Source: Chlamydiales bacterium (lineage in GTDB: Bacteria; Chlamydiota; Chlamydiia; Chlamydiales; JAAKFR01). From it: a stretch of 32,000 nt of DNA. Shown here one piece after another: positions 9,077 through 22,429 of the stretch. Within the stretch, counting starts at the first letter, position 1; each line of letters starts with the position of its first letter. The notes below the pieces were generated by a model. That model saw only the letters and a list, made by a program, of their open reading frames with translations, made no database searches and was not told the DNA's origin. The stretch covers positions 1,287,053 to 1,319,052 of the forward strand of contig JAWLBH010000001.1 of assembly GCA_041395025.1 (NCBI GenBank), given 5' to 3'. The translations under genes and the position numbers were made by a program.

Positions 9077-9769
9077 TTATAATGCATGCATTTTTTCAAT
9101 TGCAGATTTTAGTTCAGTATTTTCAGGCTTATCAAATGCGCCTTGATTTTTTAGCCATTTTAAATAGGACACTGGGACTTCACTTAGAGGTTTTCCTTGA
9201 TATTTTCCAAAAGGCATCGTATCGCTTTTTTTTTCCTCATCGAGTAAATCTAATACGATTTCGGGTAATAAATCATCGATCATGACAGTGAAAATCTGAT
9301 AGAGAGTCATAACATCATCCAAAGCACGGTGAGCATTATTCATATTAAATCCGTAAATCTGACGTAGAAATTGCAGATTATGGCGTGGTAAGTCAGGACG
9401 GTATTTACGAGCCCATTTCAAAGAATCAACCATATCGTAATTAAGTAGTTCAATTTGATTTCGTTTAAATTCTTGAATCAGAAAATGTTTATCAAAATTC
9501 TCATTGTTATGTGCCACGAGAATAGTGTCTTCATTACAAAAGGCTAGAAATGCATTTCCTACTTCAGCAAAAGAGGGGGCTTGAGCTACCATATCATTCG
9601 TAATCCCATGGATATCAGAAGCTTCTTTAGGAATAGGGATTCCAGGATTCACAAGCTTTGAAAAGGTACGCTCTGTTGTTGGATCATAGGCCGCGATCTC
9701 GACAATACGATCTTTATCAGGCCTTATTCCAGTCGTTTCAGTATCGTAATAAATAAAATGCTTAGGAAT
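9077..9769 (-). CDS. DEDDh 3'-5' exonuclease (DnaQ/epsilon-like) with a C-terminal DUF3820-like tail; 5' boundary unresolved
   Basis: The ORF-track start is a GTG at 9650-9652. The same frame stays open upstream to 9787 and encodes KHFIYYDTETTGIRPDKDRIVEIAAYD, the Exo I motif. Exo II (VAHNNENFD) and Exo III (HRALDDV) lie downstream. C-terminal tail: MPFGKYQGKPLSEVPVSYLKWL. The extension has no ATG/GTG/TTG; I placed the end at an in-frame ATT (9767-9769). Confidence 0.75.
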   Translation of the reverse strand: MPKHFIYYDTETTGIRPDKDRIVEIAAYDPTTERTFSKLVNPGIPIPKEASDIHGITNDMVAQAPSFAEVGNAFLAFCNEDTILVAHNNENFDKHFLIQEFKRNQIELLNYDMVDSLKWARKYRPDLPRHNLQFLRQIYGFNMNNAHRALDDVMTLYQIFTVMIDDLLPEIVLDLLDEEKKSDTMPFGKYQGKPLSEVPVSYLKWLKNQGAFDKPENTELKSAIEKMHAL

Positions 9770-9818
9770 TTTTAACTCATTGGGTTTTTAAACAATCATT
9801 CATCTTAATGCTTATCTC

Positions 9819-9836
9819 TGTGATTCTGCAATCACA
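9819..9836. promoter_or_regulatory. Perfect palindrome TGTGATT-ctgc-AATCACA between the export-gate operon and the dnaQ-like gene
   Basis: 7-bp arms with a 4-nt centre, read directly from the sequence. It lies 57 nt downstream of the lipoprotein ORF stop and about 50 nt upstream of the dnaQ-like coding frame. No U-run follows on the minus strand. Confidence 0.25.
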
Positions 9837-9892
9837 CACTATGGATAAAAAACCAATATACACTTTTAATAGGTTATTATCTTTTAATTCTA

Positions 9893-10045
9893 TTATCTCC
9901 CTGGAATCAGTGATCGGGGTTTTTCACCTGTAACATGAGGGTTATTTGTATTAGGCAGCGTTGAAATAGAATCGTTATTTGGCATTTTATAGATACAACT
10001 AGTGAGGGTAAAAAGGATAGTAAGAGAGAGAAGACTCAGTTTCAT
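9893..10045 (-). CDS. Small predicted lipoprotein (50 aa), absent from the ORF track
   Basis: MKLSLLSLTILFTLTSCIYKMPNNDSISTLPNTNNPHVTGEKPRSLIPGR. Signal peptide ends in the lipobox L-T-S-C. A partial SD (AAGG) lies 6 nt upstream of the ATG. The ORF starts 46 nt downstream of the sctT stop on the same strand. Confidence 0.45.
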   Translation of the reverse strand: MKLSLLSLTILFTLTSCIYKMPNNDSISTLPNTNNPHVTGEKPRSLIPGR

Positions 10046-10091
10046 AACAAACCTTAATTTTAGTGAGGACATTAATCAATAGAAAAGATAA

Positions 10092-10838
10092 TCACAATGA
10101 AAAAAGAGCTTTTTTTGCAATTGCAATGATTTCATTAAATGCTCCTTGTAAAATTTGACTAAAAAATCCTCCTGTAACAGCAATGATTGTCAGTCCAACA
10201 AAGATTTGGATTGGAAATCCGTTCCAAAAGATATGTAAGAAAGGGAAAAAACGGGCCAAAATAGCAAAAGAAGAGATCAAGATTAGGAGAAAAATCATTG
10301 GAAAAAGTGCATATGAGAGGCCTTGTATAAAAAGTTTTCCAAAGGCTTCAGTGAATCCCGTGATAAGATGAAAAGAAAAAACAAAATGGCTCTCGTATAA
10401 CAAACGTAGTACAACATGATGAAAGTCAAGAGAAAAGAAAATAGTGAAAACTGTGGTCATAAAAAAATAAGACATAAGAGGATACTCATTATGAGATAAA
10501 GGATTGAGAATTTCATAAGCAGAAAACCCTCCTAATGTTCCAATAATTTGTCCAGCAAAAGCAGCTGCTTGAAAGATTAGAGAGCAAAGAAAACCGATCA
10601 GATAACCGATCATCGCCTCACGCATGATTTGCATAGCTAAAAGGAGAGGATGATCTGGTATAAGTCTCGACTGAACAAAGAAGGGTGGAAAAAGAATAAG
10701 AGAAGAGGATAGGGCCAGCCCAATACGGATCCATAAAGAGATATTGTGTTTATGGAAAAAAGGAGAAAAGAGAAAAAATCCTATACTACGAGAAAATAGA
10801 AGCAAGAAAGGTAAAAATTCATTGGATATAATTGACAA
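10092..10838 (-). CDS. sctT: Type III secretion export-apparatus protein, SctT/FliR family
   Basis: 248 aa polytopic membrane protein with FliR/YscT-like layout (RSIGFFLFSPFF..., AFAGQIIG, LNPLS...). It overlaps the S gene by 20 nt. Confidence 0.9.
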   Translation of the reverse strand: MSIISNEFLPFLLLFSRSIGFFLFSPFFHKHNISLWIRIGLALSSSLILFPPFFVQSRLIPDHPLLLAMQIMREAMIGYLIGFLCSLIFQAAAFAGQIIGTLGGFSAYEILNPLSHNEYPLMSYFFMTTVFTIFFSLDFHHVVLRLLYESHFVFSFHLITGFTEAFGKLFIQGLSYALFPMIFLLILISSFAILARFFPFLHIFWNGFPIQIFVGLTIIAVTGGFFSQILQGAFNEIIAIAKKALFSL

Positions 10839-11109
10839 GTGAGGAGACCTTATCCCATTGGTGAATCAAAAGATTGTTTGTGAACTTAGTAAGAATTTTA
10901 AGTATCCATGGAAAAAATAGTGTTAAAGCAAACGCAAGGAGAAGGATTTTTGGAACAAACGTTAAGGTCATCTCTTGGATTTGTGTAATCGACTGAATCA
11001 GTGAAATGATTAAACCAACAATCATGGCTAGAAGAAGAAAAGGGGTGCTAATTTCAATTGCTGTATAAAGCGTTTGACGTACGATGTATGTGATTTGCTC
11101 TGGTGTCAT
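10819..11109 (-). CDS. sctS: Type III secretion export-apparatus protein, SctS/FliQ family
   Basis: 96 aa with two TM segments. The core LIQSITQIQEMTLTFVPKIL matches the FliQ/YscS signature; MTPE... and EMTL resemble FliQ. Confidence 0.9.
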   Translation of the reverse strand: MTPEQITYIVRQTLYTAIEISTPFLLLAMIVGLIISLIQSITQIQEMTLTFVPKILLLAFALTLFFPWILKILTKFTNNLLIHQWDKVSSLVNYIQ

Positions 11110-11142
11110 TTTAGAAATACTTATTTAAATTTGAAGGTCGAT

Positions 11143-11766
11143 TCATTGATAGCCTCCAACAATTTGTTGTACCACAAGTCTCCATCCATCGACTACCACA
11201 AAGAAGAGGATTTTAAAAGGGAATGAGATCATGACTGGTGGAAGCATTACCATTCCCATCGACATCAATAATGAGGTAATGACCATATCAATCACAAGAA
11301 AGGGTAAAAATAGTAGAAAACCAAGCATAAAAGCAGTGCGAAGTTCAGAGAGGACAAACCCAGGAATCACGCAATACCAAGGAATTTCATCTAATTTATT
11401 ATTCATTAGTTTAATACGAGCCATATCTAAGAAAAGCTCTAAATCTTTCTCACGAGTATGGTAAATCATAAATGTTCTTAAGGGAGGCCATGCCTTTTCC
11501 AGGATTTTTTCATAAGGGGTTTCTTTCTCTTGTATATAAGGAGTAATGGCTTTTTCGTAGATTTCTGTAATGACTGGATGCATGATATATCCTGTCAAAA
11601 TCAAAGAGAGGCCAATAATAATTTGTGAGGAGGGAACAGATGTACTTAATGCCTGACGTAAAAATGTCAAAACAATCGAAATACGAGTAAATGATGTCAT
11701 GAGAATAAATACAAAAGGGATAAGAATGAGAAAAAGAGTAGAACCAACAAGATAAGGGTTATTCAC
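11143..11766 (-). CDS. sctR: Type III secretion export-apparatus protein, SctR/FliP family
   Basis: 207 aa. MTSFTRISIVLTFLRQAL, HTREKDLELF, VLSELRTAF, LPFLVIDMVITSLLMSMGM and FKILFFVVVDGW are FliP/YscR family signatures. Confidence 0.92.
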   Translation of the reverse strand: MNNPYLVGSTLFLILIPFVFILMTSFTRISIVLTFLRQALSTSVPSSQIIIGLSLILTGYIMHPVITEIYEKAITPYIQEKETPYEKILEKAWPPLRTFMIYHTREKDLELFLDMARIKLMNNKLDEIPWYCVIPGFVLSELRTAFMLGFLLFLPFLVIDMVITSLLMSMGMVMLPPVMISFPFKILFFVVVDGWRLVVQQIVGGYQ

Positions 11767-11807
11767 ATATTTTCCAAAATTCTCGATTCGGAAAAAGATC
11801 CAATCGA

Positions 11808-12233
11808 TTAATTATTCTTAGAGGCTAGTTTTTTTAATCTTTTTATCAAGGGTTCTTTAGTCAGGCTTTTTTCTTGACTGTATTCAGTCATTTTCTCCTC
11901 TATTTTGATATCAGGAGGTAGTTGAGTCACGAGTTGAATTCCAGCTTGTGATTCAGCAATTAATACACCTGTACCGAAAACATCAATTAAATAAAGAGAA
12001 GATTTTGAGTTTAATGCACGTCGTTCAAGAATTTTAATTCCAGTTGAACGATTAAGATGAGCAATACGCGAACGCATTAACCATTTCATGATATAAACAC
12101 TCACAAAAATCAAAATGAGAATCAGTCCTAACATGGTTAACATATTTATAAACTGCCCCCAGTAATCGTAGCTTTGTCCCACAACTTCTTCAGACACTGT
12201 TTCAGTTACCAAACCTGTTCCTAAAAAAACCAT
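11808..12233 (-). CDS. FliO-like bitopic membrane protein heading the R/S/T operon
   Basis: 141 aa. AAGGAG SD lies 7 nt upstream. Single TM (MLTMLGLILILIFVSVYIMKWL), then GIKILERRALNSKSSLYLIDVFGTGVLIAESQAGIQLVTQLPP. This aligns with the Salmonella FliO core as I recall it (GLKISASASLGARERVVVVDVEDARLVLGVTAGQINLLHKLPP). Basic C-terminal tail. Confidence 0.6.
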   Translation of the reverse strand: MVFLGTGLVTETVSEEVVGQSYDYWGQFINMLTMLGLILILIFVSVYIMKWLMRSRIAHLNRSTGIKILERRALNSKSSLYLIDVFGTGVLIAESQAGIQLVTQLPPDIKIEEKMTEYSQEKSLTKEPLIKRLKKLASKNN

Positions 12234-12338
12234 CTTTTAACTCCTTATATCAAAAAAAAAAAATAAATTCATAGAATCAGTCTATCTTTCTTTTTATAAA
12301 TTTTCTATCTTAGTAAAAATTTAAGATTAGGATAGATA

Positions 12339-20541: not shown

Positions 20542-20640
20542 GCCGGGGACCTCGTGGAAGATGAAACTCTGAACTAGGTCAGGATCGGAAGGTAGCAGCC
20601 TTAAGGATGGATGAGTCTGCCTCAGAGAATATCTCCGGCT
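20542..20640 (+). ncRNA. ffs: Signal recognition particle RNA (small bacterial 4.5S type)
   Basis: Conserved domain IV core CUAGGUCAGGAUCGGAAGGUAGCAGCCUUAAGG, compared with E. coli CCAGGUCAGGUCCGGAAGGAAGCAGCCAAGG, including the GGAA tetraloop. A closing helix is formed by GCCGGGGA (20542-20549) and UCUCCGGC (20632-20639), followed by a T-run from 20640. Confidence 0.85.
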
Positions 20641-20684
20641 TTTTTTCATCCGATCTTTATCAGAAAGAATCAGCTCTATTAGTC

Positions 20685-21548
20685 ATGGAAATCATTGAAA
20701 TCAAACAGTCTCTTGGCAATCTTTTATCTGCTTCTCTGTTCATTCTTTTGTTTCTCTTTTTCATTTTACGTTCAGACTATTTTCGCCTTTCATCGTTAGT
20801 CAATCCCTATTCTATTAGATGGCAAGAGGTCATGGGAATATTTTTGATCTACCTCTCCCTTGCATTTTTGATTTTACCAGCCATCAATGGAGGGATTTTC
20901 TATATTGCATTTGGAGAAACACGTATTTCTAACCATTGGTTAGGATGGGCTCAAATCTCCTCTCTTTTTATTATTTTCCTTTCTCTTTTAACTTATTGCT
21001 TTTCCATCCGAAGTGGGTTGCGTCGCTATATCTTTTGGGGACATCATAAGCCCTCTTCAAAGAGGTTTTTTAGATCAATAGGACTAGGTTTTTTGAGTTT
21101 TTTAATAAGCTACCCCTTTGTTTTGTGGATAGGTTTTTTCACAGGATTAATCTCTTTTTGGATTTGGGGAGAGGTGGCAGTTGAACAAGTAGCTGTGAAT
21201 CAAATAAAAATGACTCAAGGCTATCCAGTTATGTTTATTTGTATGGTGTTTTTCGTGGTAGGTTTAGTTCCTTTTATGGAAGAGCTTTTATTCCGAGGGT
21301 TTCTACAAACATTATTAAAACTTTATATAGGACGTACCTGGAGTCTTATTCTCACAGCACTCATATTTGCATTGGTCCATTTTTCTCTCAGCCAGGGTTT
21401 AGGGAATTTTCAACTCATTGCTTCTCTTTTTATTCTTTCTCTGTTTCTTGGTTTTATCTACGAAAAAGAACAGACTCTTTGGGCTCCAATAGCCTTACAC
21501 GCTACATTTAATGGGTTTAGTTTAATACTACTTACGTTTTCAAAATAA
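20685..21548 (+). CDS. CPBP-family intramembrane glutamic endopeptidase (CAAX protease/Abi family)
   Basis: Polytopic membrane protein with motif 1 FMEELLFRGF, motif 2 FALVHF and motif 3 HATFNG. I moved the start from 20607 to the ATG at 20685 because 20607-20640 lies inside the SRP RNA. Confidence 0.85.
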   Translation: MEIIEIKQSLGNLLSASLFILLFLFFILRSDYFRLSSLVNPYSIRWQEVMGIFLIYLSLAFLILPAINGGIFYIAFGETRISNHWLGWAQISSLFIIFLSLLTYCFSIRSGLRRYIFWGHHKPSSKRFFRSIGLGFLSFLISYPFVLWIGFFTGLISFWIWGEVAVEQVAVNQIKMTQGYPVMFICMVFFVVGLVPFMEELLFRGFLQTLLKLYIGRTWSLILTALIFALVHFSLSQGLGNFQLIASLFILSLFLGFIYEKEQTLWAPIALHATFNGFSLILLTFSK

Positions 21549-21574: not shown

Positions 21575-22429
21575 TTAGAATCGAATTTGGCTACTTAAAT
21601 AGGCGCCTTTCTCATCACCCCAATCTCCTTCAGCAGTTAAACTAATTTTCTCACAGTTGACAAAAGAGACTCCTATTGTATAACCCCATCTTTTTTTACT
21701 ACCTAAATTATATAAGATGGCTTCAGCTGGGAGTGCTTCATTAAAAAATCCATCTACAATAGTGTGGTTGAATTGCAGTTGTGATTGAGAAAATTTAATT
21801 GCGATATAAGGAACAAGCAGGTTAATGCGATGGGAAATTCCAAGACCAATTTGCCACTCTTGATATTTTCCGTTTAATTCATTAGGGTAAATGCTGAGAG
21901 AATCTGTCTGAGTTAAGCGACTAATATTGGGTTTTGTATAGAAATATTGTGCTTCTGCTCCCAATGTTGTCGACCCACAATCCCAAATCAGCGTCCGGAC
22001 TCCAATACTCCAAGAAAATTGGGTGTTAGTTTCAATTTGAAATCGACCTGACCCGTTTAATGCAAATGCTTGTTCATTTGTATTAATTAAGATATTTGTT
22101 CCACCAAAAGTAGCAAAGATATCAAAGTAATCCCAAAAGTTACACGCTAAAAAACCTGCATTTGTATTAATTTTTGTCTCTTCAATATCACAACGATATC
22201 GACTACTATCTACTTCCATATGTCTATTAAAGACATAGTTTCCATAAAAACCAAATCTGACACTGAAAGTGTCGAGCCAAGTTAAAGAGGGATCAGAAGG
22301 GTCTCCACAATGACCCTCTAAAAATAATCCATCACAGATTAAGCATGGATCAGCAGGATTGCTAACCGGAAGAGCATGACTAACACCTGTTGTTAGAATG
22401 ATCAAGAAAGCTAATATATATTTTTTCAT
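21575..22429 (-). CDS. MOMP-family outer-membrane porin (short form)
   Basis: 284 aa with a signal peptide. Mature N-terminus LPVSNPADPCLICDGLFLEGHCGDPSDPSLTWLDTFSVRFGFYGNYVFNR parallels C. trachomatis MOMP [47 protein letters not shown]. Seven Cys residues. The C-terminal residue is Phe (SSQIRF), typical of beta-barrel OMPs. Confidence 0.8.
   Translation of the reverse strand: MKKYILAFLIILTTGVSHALPVSNPADPCLICDGLFLEGHCGDPSDPSLTWLDTFSVRFGFYGNYVFNRHMEVDSSRYRCDIEETKINTNAGFLACNFWDYFDIFATFGGTNILINTNEQAFALNGSGRFQIETNTQFSWSIGVRTLIWDCGSTTLGAEAQYFYTKPNISRLTQTDSLSIYPNELNGKYQEWQIGLGISHRINLLVPYIAIKFSQSQLQFNHTIVDGFFNEALPAEAILYNLGSKKRWGYTIGVSFVNCEKISLTAEGDWGDEKGAYLSSQIRF

Follow-up and report, generated by a model that had tools for sequence, protein, structure and literature searches.

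We analysed an operon of four co-directional genes, fliO-fliP-fliQ-fliR, in a 32,000-nt stretch of the genome of a Chlamydiales bacterium (GenBank assembly GCA_041395025.1, contig JAWLBH010000001.1, positions 1,287,053 to 1,319,052 of the forward strand; this whole stretch is hereafter the window, numbered from its first letter). According to the listing of open reading frames (ORFs), the operon occupies the minus strand at 12233-10092 and is followed by a small lipoprotein gene (Table 1). Gaps of 41 nt (fliO/fliP) and 33 nt (fliP/fliQ) separate the first three genes, fliQ and fliR overlap by 20 nt, the lipoprotein ORF begins 46 nt after fliR, and the sequence upstream of fliO reads AAGGAG 7 nt 5' of the ATG. 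This layout, with its gaps, its overlap, the downstream lipoprotein ORF and the Shine-Dalgarno sequence before the first gene, had been described in an initial annotation made from the letters and ORF translations, and the ORF coordinates agree with it exactly. We consider it probable that these chlamydial fliOPQR genes encode the core pore of a flagellar-type export gate that exists in addition to the sctRST gate of the injectisome and that most likely serves protein export and not swimming.

Table 1. Coordinates of the features at the fliOPQR locus of the window.
Feature	Coordinates	Strand	Product and start	Remarks
fliO	11808..12233	-	141 aa, ATG start	bitopic membrane protein, predicted FliP/FliR assembly factor; PF04347
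fliP	11143..11766	-	207 aa, GTG start	reduced form, predicted pore-forming subunit; TIGR01103
fliQ	10819..11109	-	96 aa, ATG start	predicted gate subunit; TIGR01402 versus TIGR01403 scores
fliR	10092..10838	-	248 aa, TTG start	predicted gate subunit; Bac_export_1
small lipoprotein gene	9893..10045 (or from 10072)	-	50 aa (or 59 aa)	lipobox LTSC, TNNP motif
divergent intergenic region fliO/HAD	12234..12338	strandless		fliO AAGGAG Shine-Dalgarno, presumed operon promoter

The class of the proteins was judged from paired hidden Markov model (HMM) scores, from comparisons with PDB chains and plasmid records, and from the published typing of a sister metagenome-assembled genome (MAG). FliP reached the cut-off of the flagellar model (TIGR01103, 229.9 bits, cut-off 217.45) and not that of the injectisome counterpart SctR (TIGR01102, 162.3 bits, cut-off 208.6). 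FliQ scored 87.7 bits on TIGR01402 (cut-off 88.9, short by 1.2) versus 59.0 bits on the SctS model TIGR01403 (cut-off 76.5), and FliR scored 123.3 bits on TIGR01400 (cut-off 168.6, not reached) versus 69.9 bits on the SctT model TIGR01401 (cut-off 163), so that every SctR/S/T cut-off was left unreached and every SctR/S/T score lay under its flagellar counterpart. The PDB comparisons pointed the same way, as FliP matched FliP chains at 159-186 bits versus 104-110 for SpaP, FliQ matched FliQ at 64 bits versus 35 for SpaQ, and the search with FliR returned FliR chains only. Comparison of FliP with 660 plasmid records gave a bimodal result, with 40-50% identity to annotated FliPs and 30-36% to SctR/YscR/Spa24. 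The three proteins belong to the Pfam families FliP (PF00813), Bac_export_3 (PF01313) and Bac_export_1 (PF01311; 148.5 bits for FliR), and by these comparisons FliR is divergent but of flagellar type. The initial annotation had seen residues of the FliP/FliQ and not of the YscR/YscS kind in the second and third proteins. All the motifs that it quoted (MTSFTRI, HTREKDLELF, SELRTAF, MTPE... and QEMTLTFVPKI) are in the translations, and the flagellar models, which outscore those for injectisomes, bear out this view. The preference for flagellar over injectisome models thus held for P, Q and R in the paired comparison that it had proposed, with only FliP rising above its equivalog cut-off.

The product of the first gene matched the Pfam FliO family (PF04347) at 29.7 bits (cut-off 22, E 7e-7), which is above the gathering score and agrees with its initial assignment, and the same domain was found in 23 of 23 close homologues. 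A profile built from these 23 chlamydial proteins aligned with E. coli FliO over the transmembrane (TM) segment and the core (79 columns, E 3.6e-4, probability 37%), a weak match in the register proposed in the initial annotation; weak alignment is usual for FliO (PMC12403147). A sequence search of PDB with the window protein retrieved no FliO, the best match being a thermosome (E 0.97). The position of the gene is that expected of FliO, as this FliO-domain protein is encoded directly 5' of fliP. On the strength of the paired-model, PDB, plasmid and Pfam results, we conclude that P, Q and R are of flagellar type and that the first gene encodes FliO. The view of FliO as strictly flagellum-specific, from which the initial annotation had argued, is out of date (PMC12403147); FliO also occurs in some operons for non-flagellar type III secretion systems (T3SSs) of Myxococcus and some Proteobacteria.

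The operon is orthologous and syntenic to genes S4CHLAM2_16300-16330 of the sponge MAG O_S4.2_2 (context L095; FliO P0012, FliP P0037), a genome that carries both types of gate. Its FliP (S4CHLAM2_16320, 208 aa) is typed as K02419 and TIGR01103, and its SctR (S4CHLAM2_04710, 274 aa), encoded on another contig, as K03226 and TIGR01102 yscR with PF00813 only (Dharamshi 2022, Data S8A/B, PMC9666466). The same source lists SctS, SctT, SctU and SctV for this genome, together with FlhA, two FlhB/SctU, FliF, FlhF and two FliI/SctN copies (PMC9666466). Of the two readings offered by the initial annotation, a second, flagellum-derived gate is therefore the one favoured by the paired models, by the PDB and plasmid comparisons and by the occurrence of both FliP and SctR in a syntenic sister MAG.

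O_S4.2_2 belongs to Ca. Sororchlamydiaceae, the former Clade IV and sister group of Chlamydiaceae, for which Data S8A covers nine genomes (PMC9666466). Across these nine, the injectisome genes SctJ, SctS, SctT and SctV are present, as are the flagellar-type genes FlhA, FlhF, FliF (with a FliG-middle domain), FliQ and FliR (PMC9666466). COG1338 (FliP/SctR) and FliI/SctN occur in two copies and FlhB/SctU in one or two, FliW was recorded in two genomes, and the SctRs measure 274-275 aa and carry PF00813 only (PMC9666466). Counts of zero are given for FlgB, C, D, E, G, H, I and K, for FliC/FlgL, for FliD, E, G, L, M and S, and for MotA and MotB (PMC9666466). The 'FliF' of these genomes (378-434 aa in Data S8B) combines PF01514 (YscJ/FliF) with PF14841 (FliG middle domain) (PMC9666466). 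With both domains, it would be a fused ring-rotor remnant. We presume that this fused protein resembles Chlamydia CT719.

To place the operon among its relatives, we used genomic-context comparison together with a dnaQ-anchored scan of GTDB representatives. Relatives of FliP form more than 120 clusters (90% level) with 61-84% identity to the window protein, and those of the best 120 that bear a name all come from uncultured Chlamydiales or Chlamydiae and are mostly called FliP. On the HAD side the conserved order is mutY - bioD/pta-like - rfaC - rluA - fabI - SDR - folB - HAD, then fliO-fliP-fliQ-fliR; past fliR it continues as small lipoprotein - (csrA) - (ybjN) - dnaQ - mqn (PF02621) - mqnB-like (PNP_UDP_1) - ADH. 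This arrangement is found in more than 10 related genomes (L002, L003, L005, L007, L009, L011-L014, L059, L062 and L095), on contigs of 1.80 and 2.40 Mb and also in the marine 'Waddliaceae bacterium SP13' (L059). Within 10 kb of fliOPQR, no relative's locus holds any other flagellar or T3SS gene, sctJ/sctL included. Because the same isolation is seen in these relatives and in the flagellated single-amplified genome (SAG) AG-110-M15, a stand-alone fliOPQR is the chlamydial norm; the initial annotation was right that the operon is detached from all other T3SS genes, but this is nothing unusual. Judged by gene order, the site is ancient and conserved in chlamydiae, and similarity and synteny suggest that the window lineage groups with Ca. 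Sororchlamydiaceae-like chlamydiae. In one lake MAG (L005 11090-15216, also L006), a ~4-kb insertion with DUF72, DUF892 and several family-less ORFs lies between fliO-fliP and fliQ-fliR, and all four flagellar ORFs are intact.

Nei-Gojobori comparisons of the window with each of four relatives revealed that synonymous sites are saturated (proportion of synonymous differences, pS, 0.66-0.97), and that the non-synonymous distance (dN), at 0.11-0.24 (fliP) and 0.07-0.23 (fliQ), does not exceed the 0.13-0.27 of dnaQ; in dN, fliO and fliR resemble the HAD gene and folB. Low dN at saturated synonymous sites, along with ORFs and junctions that are intact across many lineages, indicates that the fli genes are maintained by selection. 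Other lineages have kept less of the operon. Because there is a second paralogue of dnaQ (L067 and L005 come from a single genome), absences were re-validated with the dnaQ-linked lipoprotein gene. HMM searches found FliO in at least 14 GTDB representatives among the dnaQ loci listed, seven with fliPQR and seven in which fliO is kept and fliPQR is absent (L021, L031, which is a Parachlamydiaceae MAG, L052, L053, L054, L026 and L068). The lipoprotein gene is abutted by fliO in L031, L052, L053 and L054 and co-directional with it in six of the seven fliPQR-less loci; the seventh, L026, has fliO 3' of dnaQ and a divergent lipoprotein gene. At least 45 further dnaQ-linked lipoprotein loci, among those listed, gave no fliO match in the HMM search.

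This series extends to Chlamydia. Non-flagellated members of Chlamydiia are reported to have an orphan FliO whose gene shares an operon with those for a YbjN-family protein, MqnB and MqnD (PMC12403147), and COG3190 is scored present in every Chlamydia species (Data S8A, PMC9666466). Its neighbourhood of ybjN and mqn genes is the neighbourhood of the window operon. We infer from this correspondence that the Chlamydia orphan FliO may be what remained of fliOPQR after the loss of fliPQR. By gene order, the YbjN-family neighbour may be Mcsc/CT260. The latter acts as a T3S chaperone and binds CdsQ (PMC2734247). Should the two be the same, a link between FliO and the injectisome would be left open, with the operon still not being the injectisome's gate.

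Homology with the Salmonella and E. coli proteins suggests the following mechanism. FliO, which spans the membrane once, would scaffold FliP oligomers, and the addition of one FliR and four FliQ to these would complete a helical FliP5-FliQ4-FliR1 pore. FlhB and the FlhA ring would join this pore inside the FliF ring, and the FliI ATPase would feed it with substrates. Gene identity, orthology, synteny and purifying selection are plain for the operon itself, as is co-existence with SctR in the sister genome; the stoichiometry of the gate and its partner proteins in the window genome are proposed by analogy. Because the Sororchlamydiaceae inventories are without rod, hook, filament and motor genes, the gate is most likely an export device, or a part of one, and not a swimming organelle. 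Going further, Sororchlamydiaceae-like chlamydiae, the window organism among them, might keep a full FliF-FlhA-FlhB-FliO/P/Q/R-FliI apparatus without axial or motor parts, strongly selected as a second export system or as one that exchanges parts with the injectisome, and the FlhA, FliI and FliF of Chlamydia with its orphan FliO might be the reduced remnant of that system, left at the same site once fliPQR had been deleted. We put this wider scheme forward tentatively, as an idea that has a fair chance of being right but is more likely to be wrong.

Several points weigh against a second, export-dedicated gate. Only FliP passes the strict NCBIfam equivalog cut-offs, FliQ, FliR and FliO all lying under theirs (for FliO, 42.9 bits on TIGR03500, cut-off 55.25), and the flagellar class of P, Q and R follows from model scores, PDB and plasmid comparisons and the typing of the sister MAG. 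FliP itself is reduced. The FliP alignment showed that the window protein starts ~10 residues before its first TM segment (TM1) and has no flagellar signal peptide, and that the Met-Met-Met gasket is M-V-M (residues ~170-176, near 'SMGM[VMI][MLM]LPP'). Going by work on Salmonella, we take the Met-Met-Met loop to be the 'M-gasket' that seals the closed pore. Within the clade of 204-217-aa FliPs this loop reads M-V-M, M-V-L or M-I-L, whereas E. coli and marine chlamydial FliPs have MMM. The marine chlamydial FliPs (299 and 302 aa) keep ~60 periplasmic residues at the N terminus and two periplasmic insertions, all of which are absent from window-clade FliPs, in which the other hallmark motifs are conserved. 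The injectisome-like length and the missing signal peptide had been pointed out in the initial annotation, with which the alignment concurs. As for the genomic setting, FlhA, FlhB, FliF and SctRST are proposed for the window genome from its relative O_S4.2_2, and the assignment to Ca. Sororchlamydiaceae is drawn from FliP (80%) and FliO (57%) identity and from synteny. Moreover, the zeros for rod, hook and filament come from COG/KO mapping, by which divergent proteins can be overlooked, and the authors of the survey read the flagellar genes of Sororchlamydiaceae as evidence of motility (Dharamshi 2022, PMC9666466).

If those authors are right, the operon could be a dispersed piece of a complete working flagellum, with ~30 other genes elsewhere and an organism that is motile at some stage. 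Marine chlamydial SAGs do have 20-28 flagellar genes (PMC5604735), one of them with the same stand-alone fliOPQR, and the CC-IV/Sororchlamydiaceae genes were taken as motility genes by both Dharamshi 2020 and Dharamshi 2022; furthermore, csrA adjoins fliR in most relatives and FliW is found in two Sororchlamydiaceae MAGs. We nevertheless hold a working flagellum to be unlikely, given the zero entries of Data S8A for rod, hook, filament, FliG/M and Mot in nine Sororchlamydiaceae genomes, the loss from window-clade FliP of the signal peptide and periplasmic insertions that SAG FliP has, the deletion of csrA in the window and the outright deletion of fliPQR in sister lineages. The same deletions could be taken to mean that the operon no longer functions and is decaying towards deletion, as a relic of an ancestral chlamydial flagellum: fliPQR has been cleanly lost from seven related loci that retain fliO and the lipoprotein gene, at least 45 further loci have the dnaQ-linked lipoprotein gene and no fliO match, the window has lost csrA and ybjN, and one relative has suffered a 4-kb insertion between fliP and fliQ. 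Such a relic is improbable, given that the four ORFs are intact in the window as well as in over 100 sequence clusters, that gene junctions and overlaps are conserved, and that fliP and fliQ evolve as slowly as dnaQ or more slowly at non-synonymous sites while synonymous sites are saturated.

The other reading offered by the initial annotation was that the operon is the sole export gate of the injectisome, retaining an ancestral FliO-type factor, and that the long CdsR of Chlamydiaceae is a FliO-SctR fusion. It could draw on the fact that FliO is encoded in certain operons of non-flagellar T3SSs and by an orphan gene in every Chlamydia species, on the injectisome-like length of a FliP that has no signal peptide, and on the score of 178.9 that FliP obtained with the EscR/YscR subfamily model NF009438 (cut-off 179). 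This reading gave way, however, when the sister MAG with the same locus turned out to have a separate 274-aa SctR (PF00813 only) as well as SctS and SctT, and when the flagellar models won for P, Q and R alike. The fusion finds no support either in the evidence at hand, which is indirect and includes no direct alignment with a Chlamydiaceae CdsR: in Chlamydia, FliO has a gene of its own beside ybjN and mqn and is not within CdsR, and the Sororchlamydiaceae SctRs carry no domain but PF00813. A search of 1.84 billion representatives with the chlamydial FliO profile gave 1859 matches, of which the best 150 are 91-241 aa long and include no ~300-aa protein. We thus judge an injectisome gate to be very improbable. 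That the operon stands alone amid housekeeping genes might also suggest a flagellar cassette acquired recently from a flagellated bacterium by horizontal transfer. This we find scarcely credible, as it is contradicted by the conserved synteny: the insertion site is kept from Sororchlamydiaceae-like MAGs to a marine Waddliaceae-like MAG, the operon has the G+C content (0.34) of its surroundings, the best 120 FliP clusters, where named, are all chlamydial, and the best non-chlamydial FliP in the plasmid records is just 50% identical. A flagellar-type export gate alongside the injectisome therefore remains the reading that we prefer.

The small lipoprotein encoded after fliR has the motif C-x(5-8)-D-x-[LIF]-x-x-[VIL]-P-x-T-N-N-P, in which T-N-N-P is invariant, and matched no Pfam family. 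To our knowledge, a dnaQ-adjacent TNNP lipoprotein has not been described. A family HMM placed its gene beside dnaQ in at least 51 chlamydial loci (among L011-L069), mostly without fliO, including those of Parachlamydiales and, with neither fliO nor fliPQR, those of Simkaniaceae and Rhabdochlamydia, so that it is a genuine, conserved gene and a dnaQ neighbour throughout Chlamydiota; where fliO is present it runs in the direction of dnaQ, and elsewhere the two diverge. The gene may be co-transcribed with the operon. We considered and rejected the lipoprotein as a new flagellar component, as it is a neighbour of dnaQ in those at least 51 loci, which are mostly fliO-less. In most relatives csrA and, in several, also ybjN (a T3S-chaperone-like family) sit between the lipoprotein gene and dnaQ (L002 12112-12959). 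At 9653-9892 of the window neither gene is present, and tblastn recovered no trace of them; L009, L013 and L095 likewise have no ybjN, and L005 and L012 no csrA.

Two further observations concern this interval and the adjoining gene. The sequence TGTGATT-GCAG-AATCACA (9819-9836), located 57 nt past the stop codon of the lipoprotein gene and shortly before dnaQ, is a perfect palindrome with no T-run; it might form a weak terminator hairpin or be bound by a protein. The dnaQ gene (9077-9799, minus strand) has no canonical start before its ExoI motif: the frame runs ATG-ATT-GTT-TAA (MIV and a stop) and continues with KPNELKIPKHFIYYDTETTG, where relatives begin with MAKRFIYYDTETTG, and the sole listed start, a GTG at 9652, would remove the ExoI motif. 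This anomaly could be due to an early nonsense change, a non-canonical start (e.g. ATT) or an assembly error.

Upstream of fliO we found no convincing sigma-70-like site, promoter-like sites showing no enrichment, and no sigma-28-like GCCGATAA box was seen there by eye; scans for promoters and terminators gave nothing beyond shuffled expectation. The operon is flanked by genes for a dnaQ-type exonuclease (PRK06309, 301 bits) and a HAD-IIB hydrolase, and family scans revealed no T3SS or flagellar gene among all other window ORFs of at least 90 aa, as the initial annotation had stated of flanks and window alike. These other ORFs include tyrS, HU, accA, an MsbA-like ABC exporter, mqn genes, folB, SDR, fabI, rluA, rfaC, mutY, a MOMP-like porin, PP2C, a nifS-like and a nagZ-like gene, two CNNM/CorC genes, dcd, ruvB and a spoIID-like gene, with a few remaining ones without family. 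The operon has a G+C content equal to that of the rest of the window, which is marked as chlamydial by a plant/chlamydia-type FabI (PRK06300, 543 bits), PRK06309 and Chlam_OMP. The Chlam_OMP match is a 284-aa protein (21575-22429, minus strand) that aligns in four stretches (E 4e-51) and is shorter than the model of 397 positions. An RNA of the signal recognition particle (RF00169, 42.3 bits) at 20542-20642 overlaps the first 36 nt of a CPBP-protease ORF (20607-21548), and the true start of this ORF is therefore probably further downstream. On the minus strand at 1-100, a gene starting near position 100 (MNKGEHADKEEIIEYPENYEEMVKKLQEREDE...) runs off the left edge. Relatives have, at this site upstream of tyrS, a 123-135-aa ORF without family and neither flhA nor fliA. 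No flhA adjoins tyrS in the relatives, in which NIF3, rpiA and groESL lie upstream of tyrS. In Chlamydia trachomatis, flhA and fliA presumably adjoin tyrS (CT060-CT062).

Part of this was already known, as GenBank names the products correctly as flagellar (FliO MEZ5315739.1, FliP MEZ5315738 and FliR MEZ5315736, 'MAG: Chlamydiales bacterium', on a contig of 1,319,052 bp) and the flagellar genes of the clade are published; our literature search found no paper that describes the MAG containing the window. What goes beyond the papers that we consulted is the conserved site, the decay series that leads to the Chlamydia orphan FliO, the reduced FliP, and strong constraint on the operon in a family that is apparently without axial genes. 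What the 'cryptic' flagellar genes of Chlamydia do has been puzzling since the first genomes, and yeast two-hybrid data in which FlhA (CT060) binds CdsQ suggest that flagellar and injectisome parts may mix (PMC2734247). The locus represents an intermediate state, with pore genes that are intact and constrained at the ybjN/dnaQ/mqn site where Chlamydia keeps an orphan FliO alone. The orphan FliO has been suggested to act as a chaperone for menaquinone enzymes (PMC12403147); the simple evolutionary account offered by the locus is that it would be a leftover of fliOPQR and not such a chaperone. Sororchlamydiaceae-like organisms are thus a place to ask what an axial-less flagellar export apparatus does.

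Among known systems, Sororchlamydiaceae O_S4.2_2 comes closest to the window, with the same gene order and site (SDR-folB-HAD, fliOPQR, lipoprotein-csrA-dnaQ-mqn), a FliP that is 80% identical, equally short (208 aa) and likewise without signal peptide, and a FliO that is 57% identical. The two differ in csrA, which is present there and lost in the window, and in the window dnaQ being without a canonical start; ybjN is absent from both. The marine SAG SCGC AG-110-M15 (PMC5604735) has a likewise stand-alone fliO-fliP-fliQ-fliR on an 8-kb contig without flagellar neighbours, with FliP and FliQ each 54% identical to those of the window. In contrast to the window, its FliP (302 aa) has a signal peptide, a long periplasmic segment at the N terminus, two insertions and the MMM gasket, its genome has rod, hook and filament genes, and other genes flank the operon. 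The export gate of Salmonella and E. coli (PDB 6F2D and 6R69) has the same fliO-P-Q-R order, and the FliO TM segment and core align; E. coli FliP is 45% identical to that of the window, with MTSFTR, TRExD, SEL(K/R)TAF, PFK and DGW conserved. The window differs from these species in lacking a FliP signal peptide, in its M-V-M gasket and in having no adjacent fliLMN or flhBA, and the rest of the flagellum is probably missing in the window organism. Solved flagellar gates contain five FliP, four FliQ and one FliR, and FliO of the Salmonella/E. coli system is reportedly treated by Fabiani et al. 2017. Chlamydial CdsR/S/T belong to the same superfamilies (PF00813, PF01313 and PF01311), and CdsR is likewise without signal peptide, but the window proteins score far lower on SctR/S/T than on flagellar models and have no sctJ/sctL neighbours. 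The cryptic genes of Chlamydiaceae, FlhA (CT060), FliI (CT717) and FliF (CT719), together with the orphan FliO beside ybjN-mqnD-mqnB (PMC2830194, PMC2734247, PMC12403147), are likewise a flagellar-type remnant coexisting with an injectisome. Chlamydiaceae have lost fliP, fliQ and fliR (Data S8A), whereas the pore genes of the window are intact and constrained.

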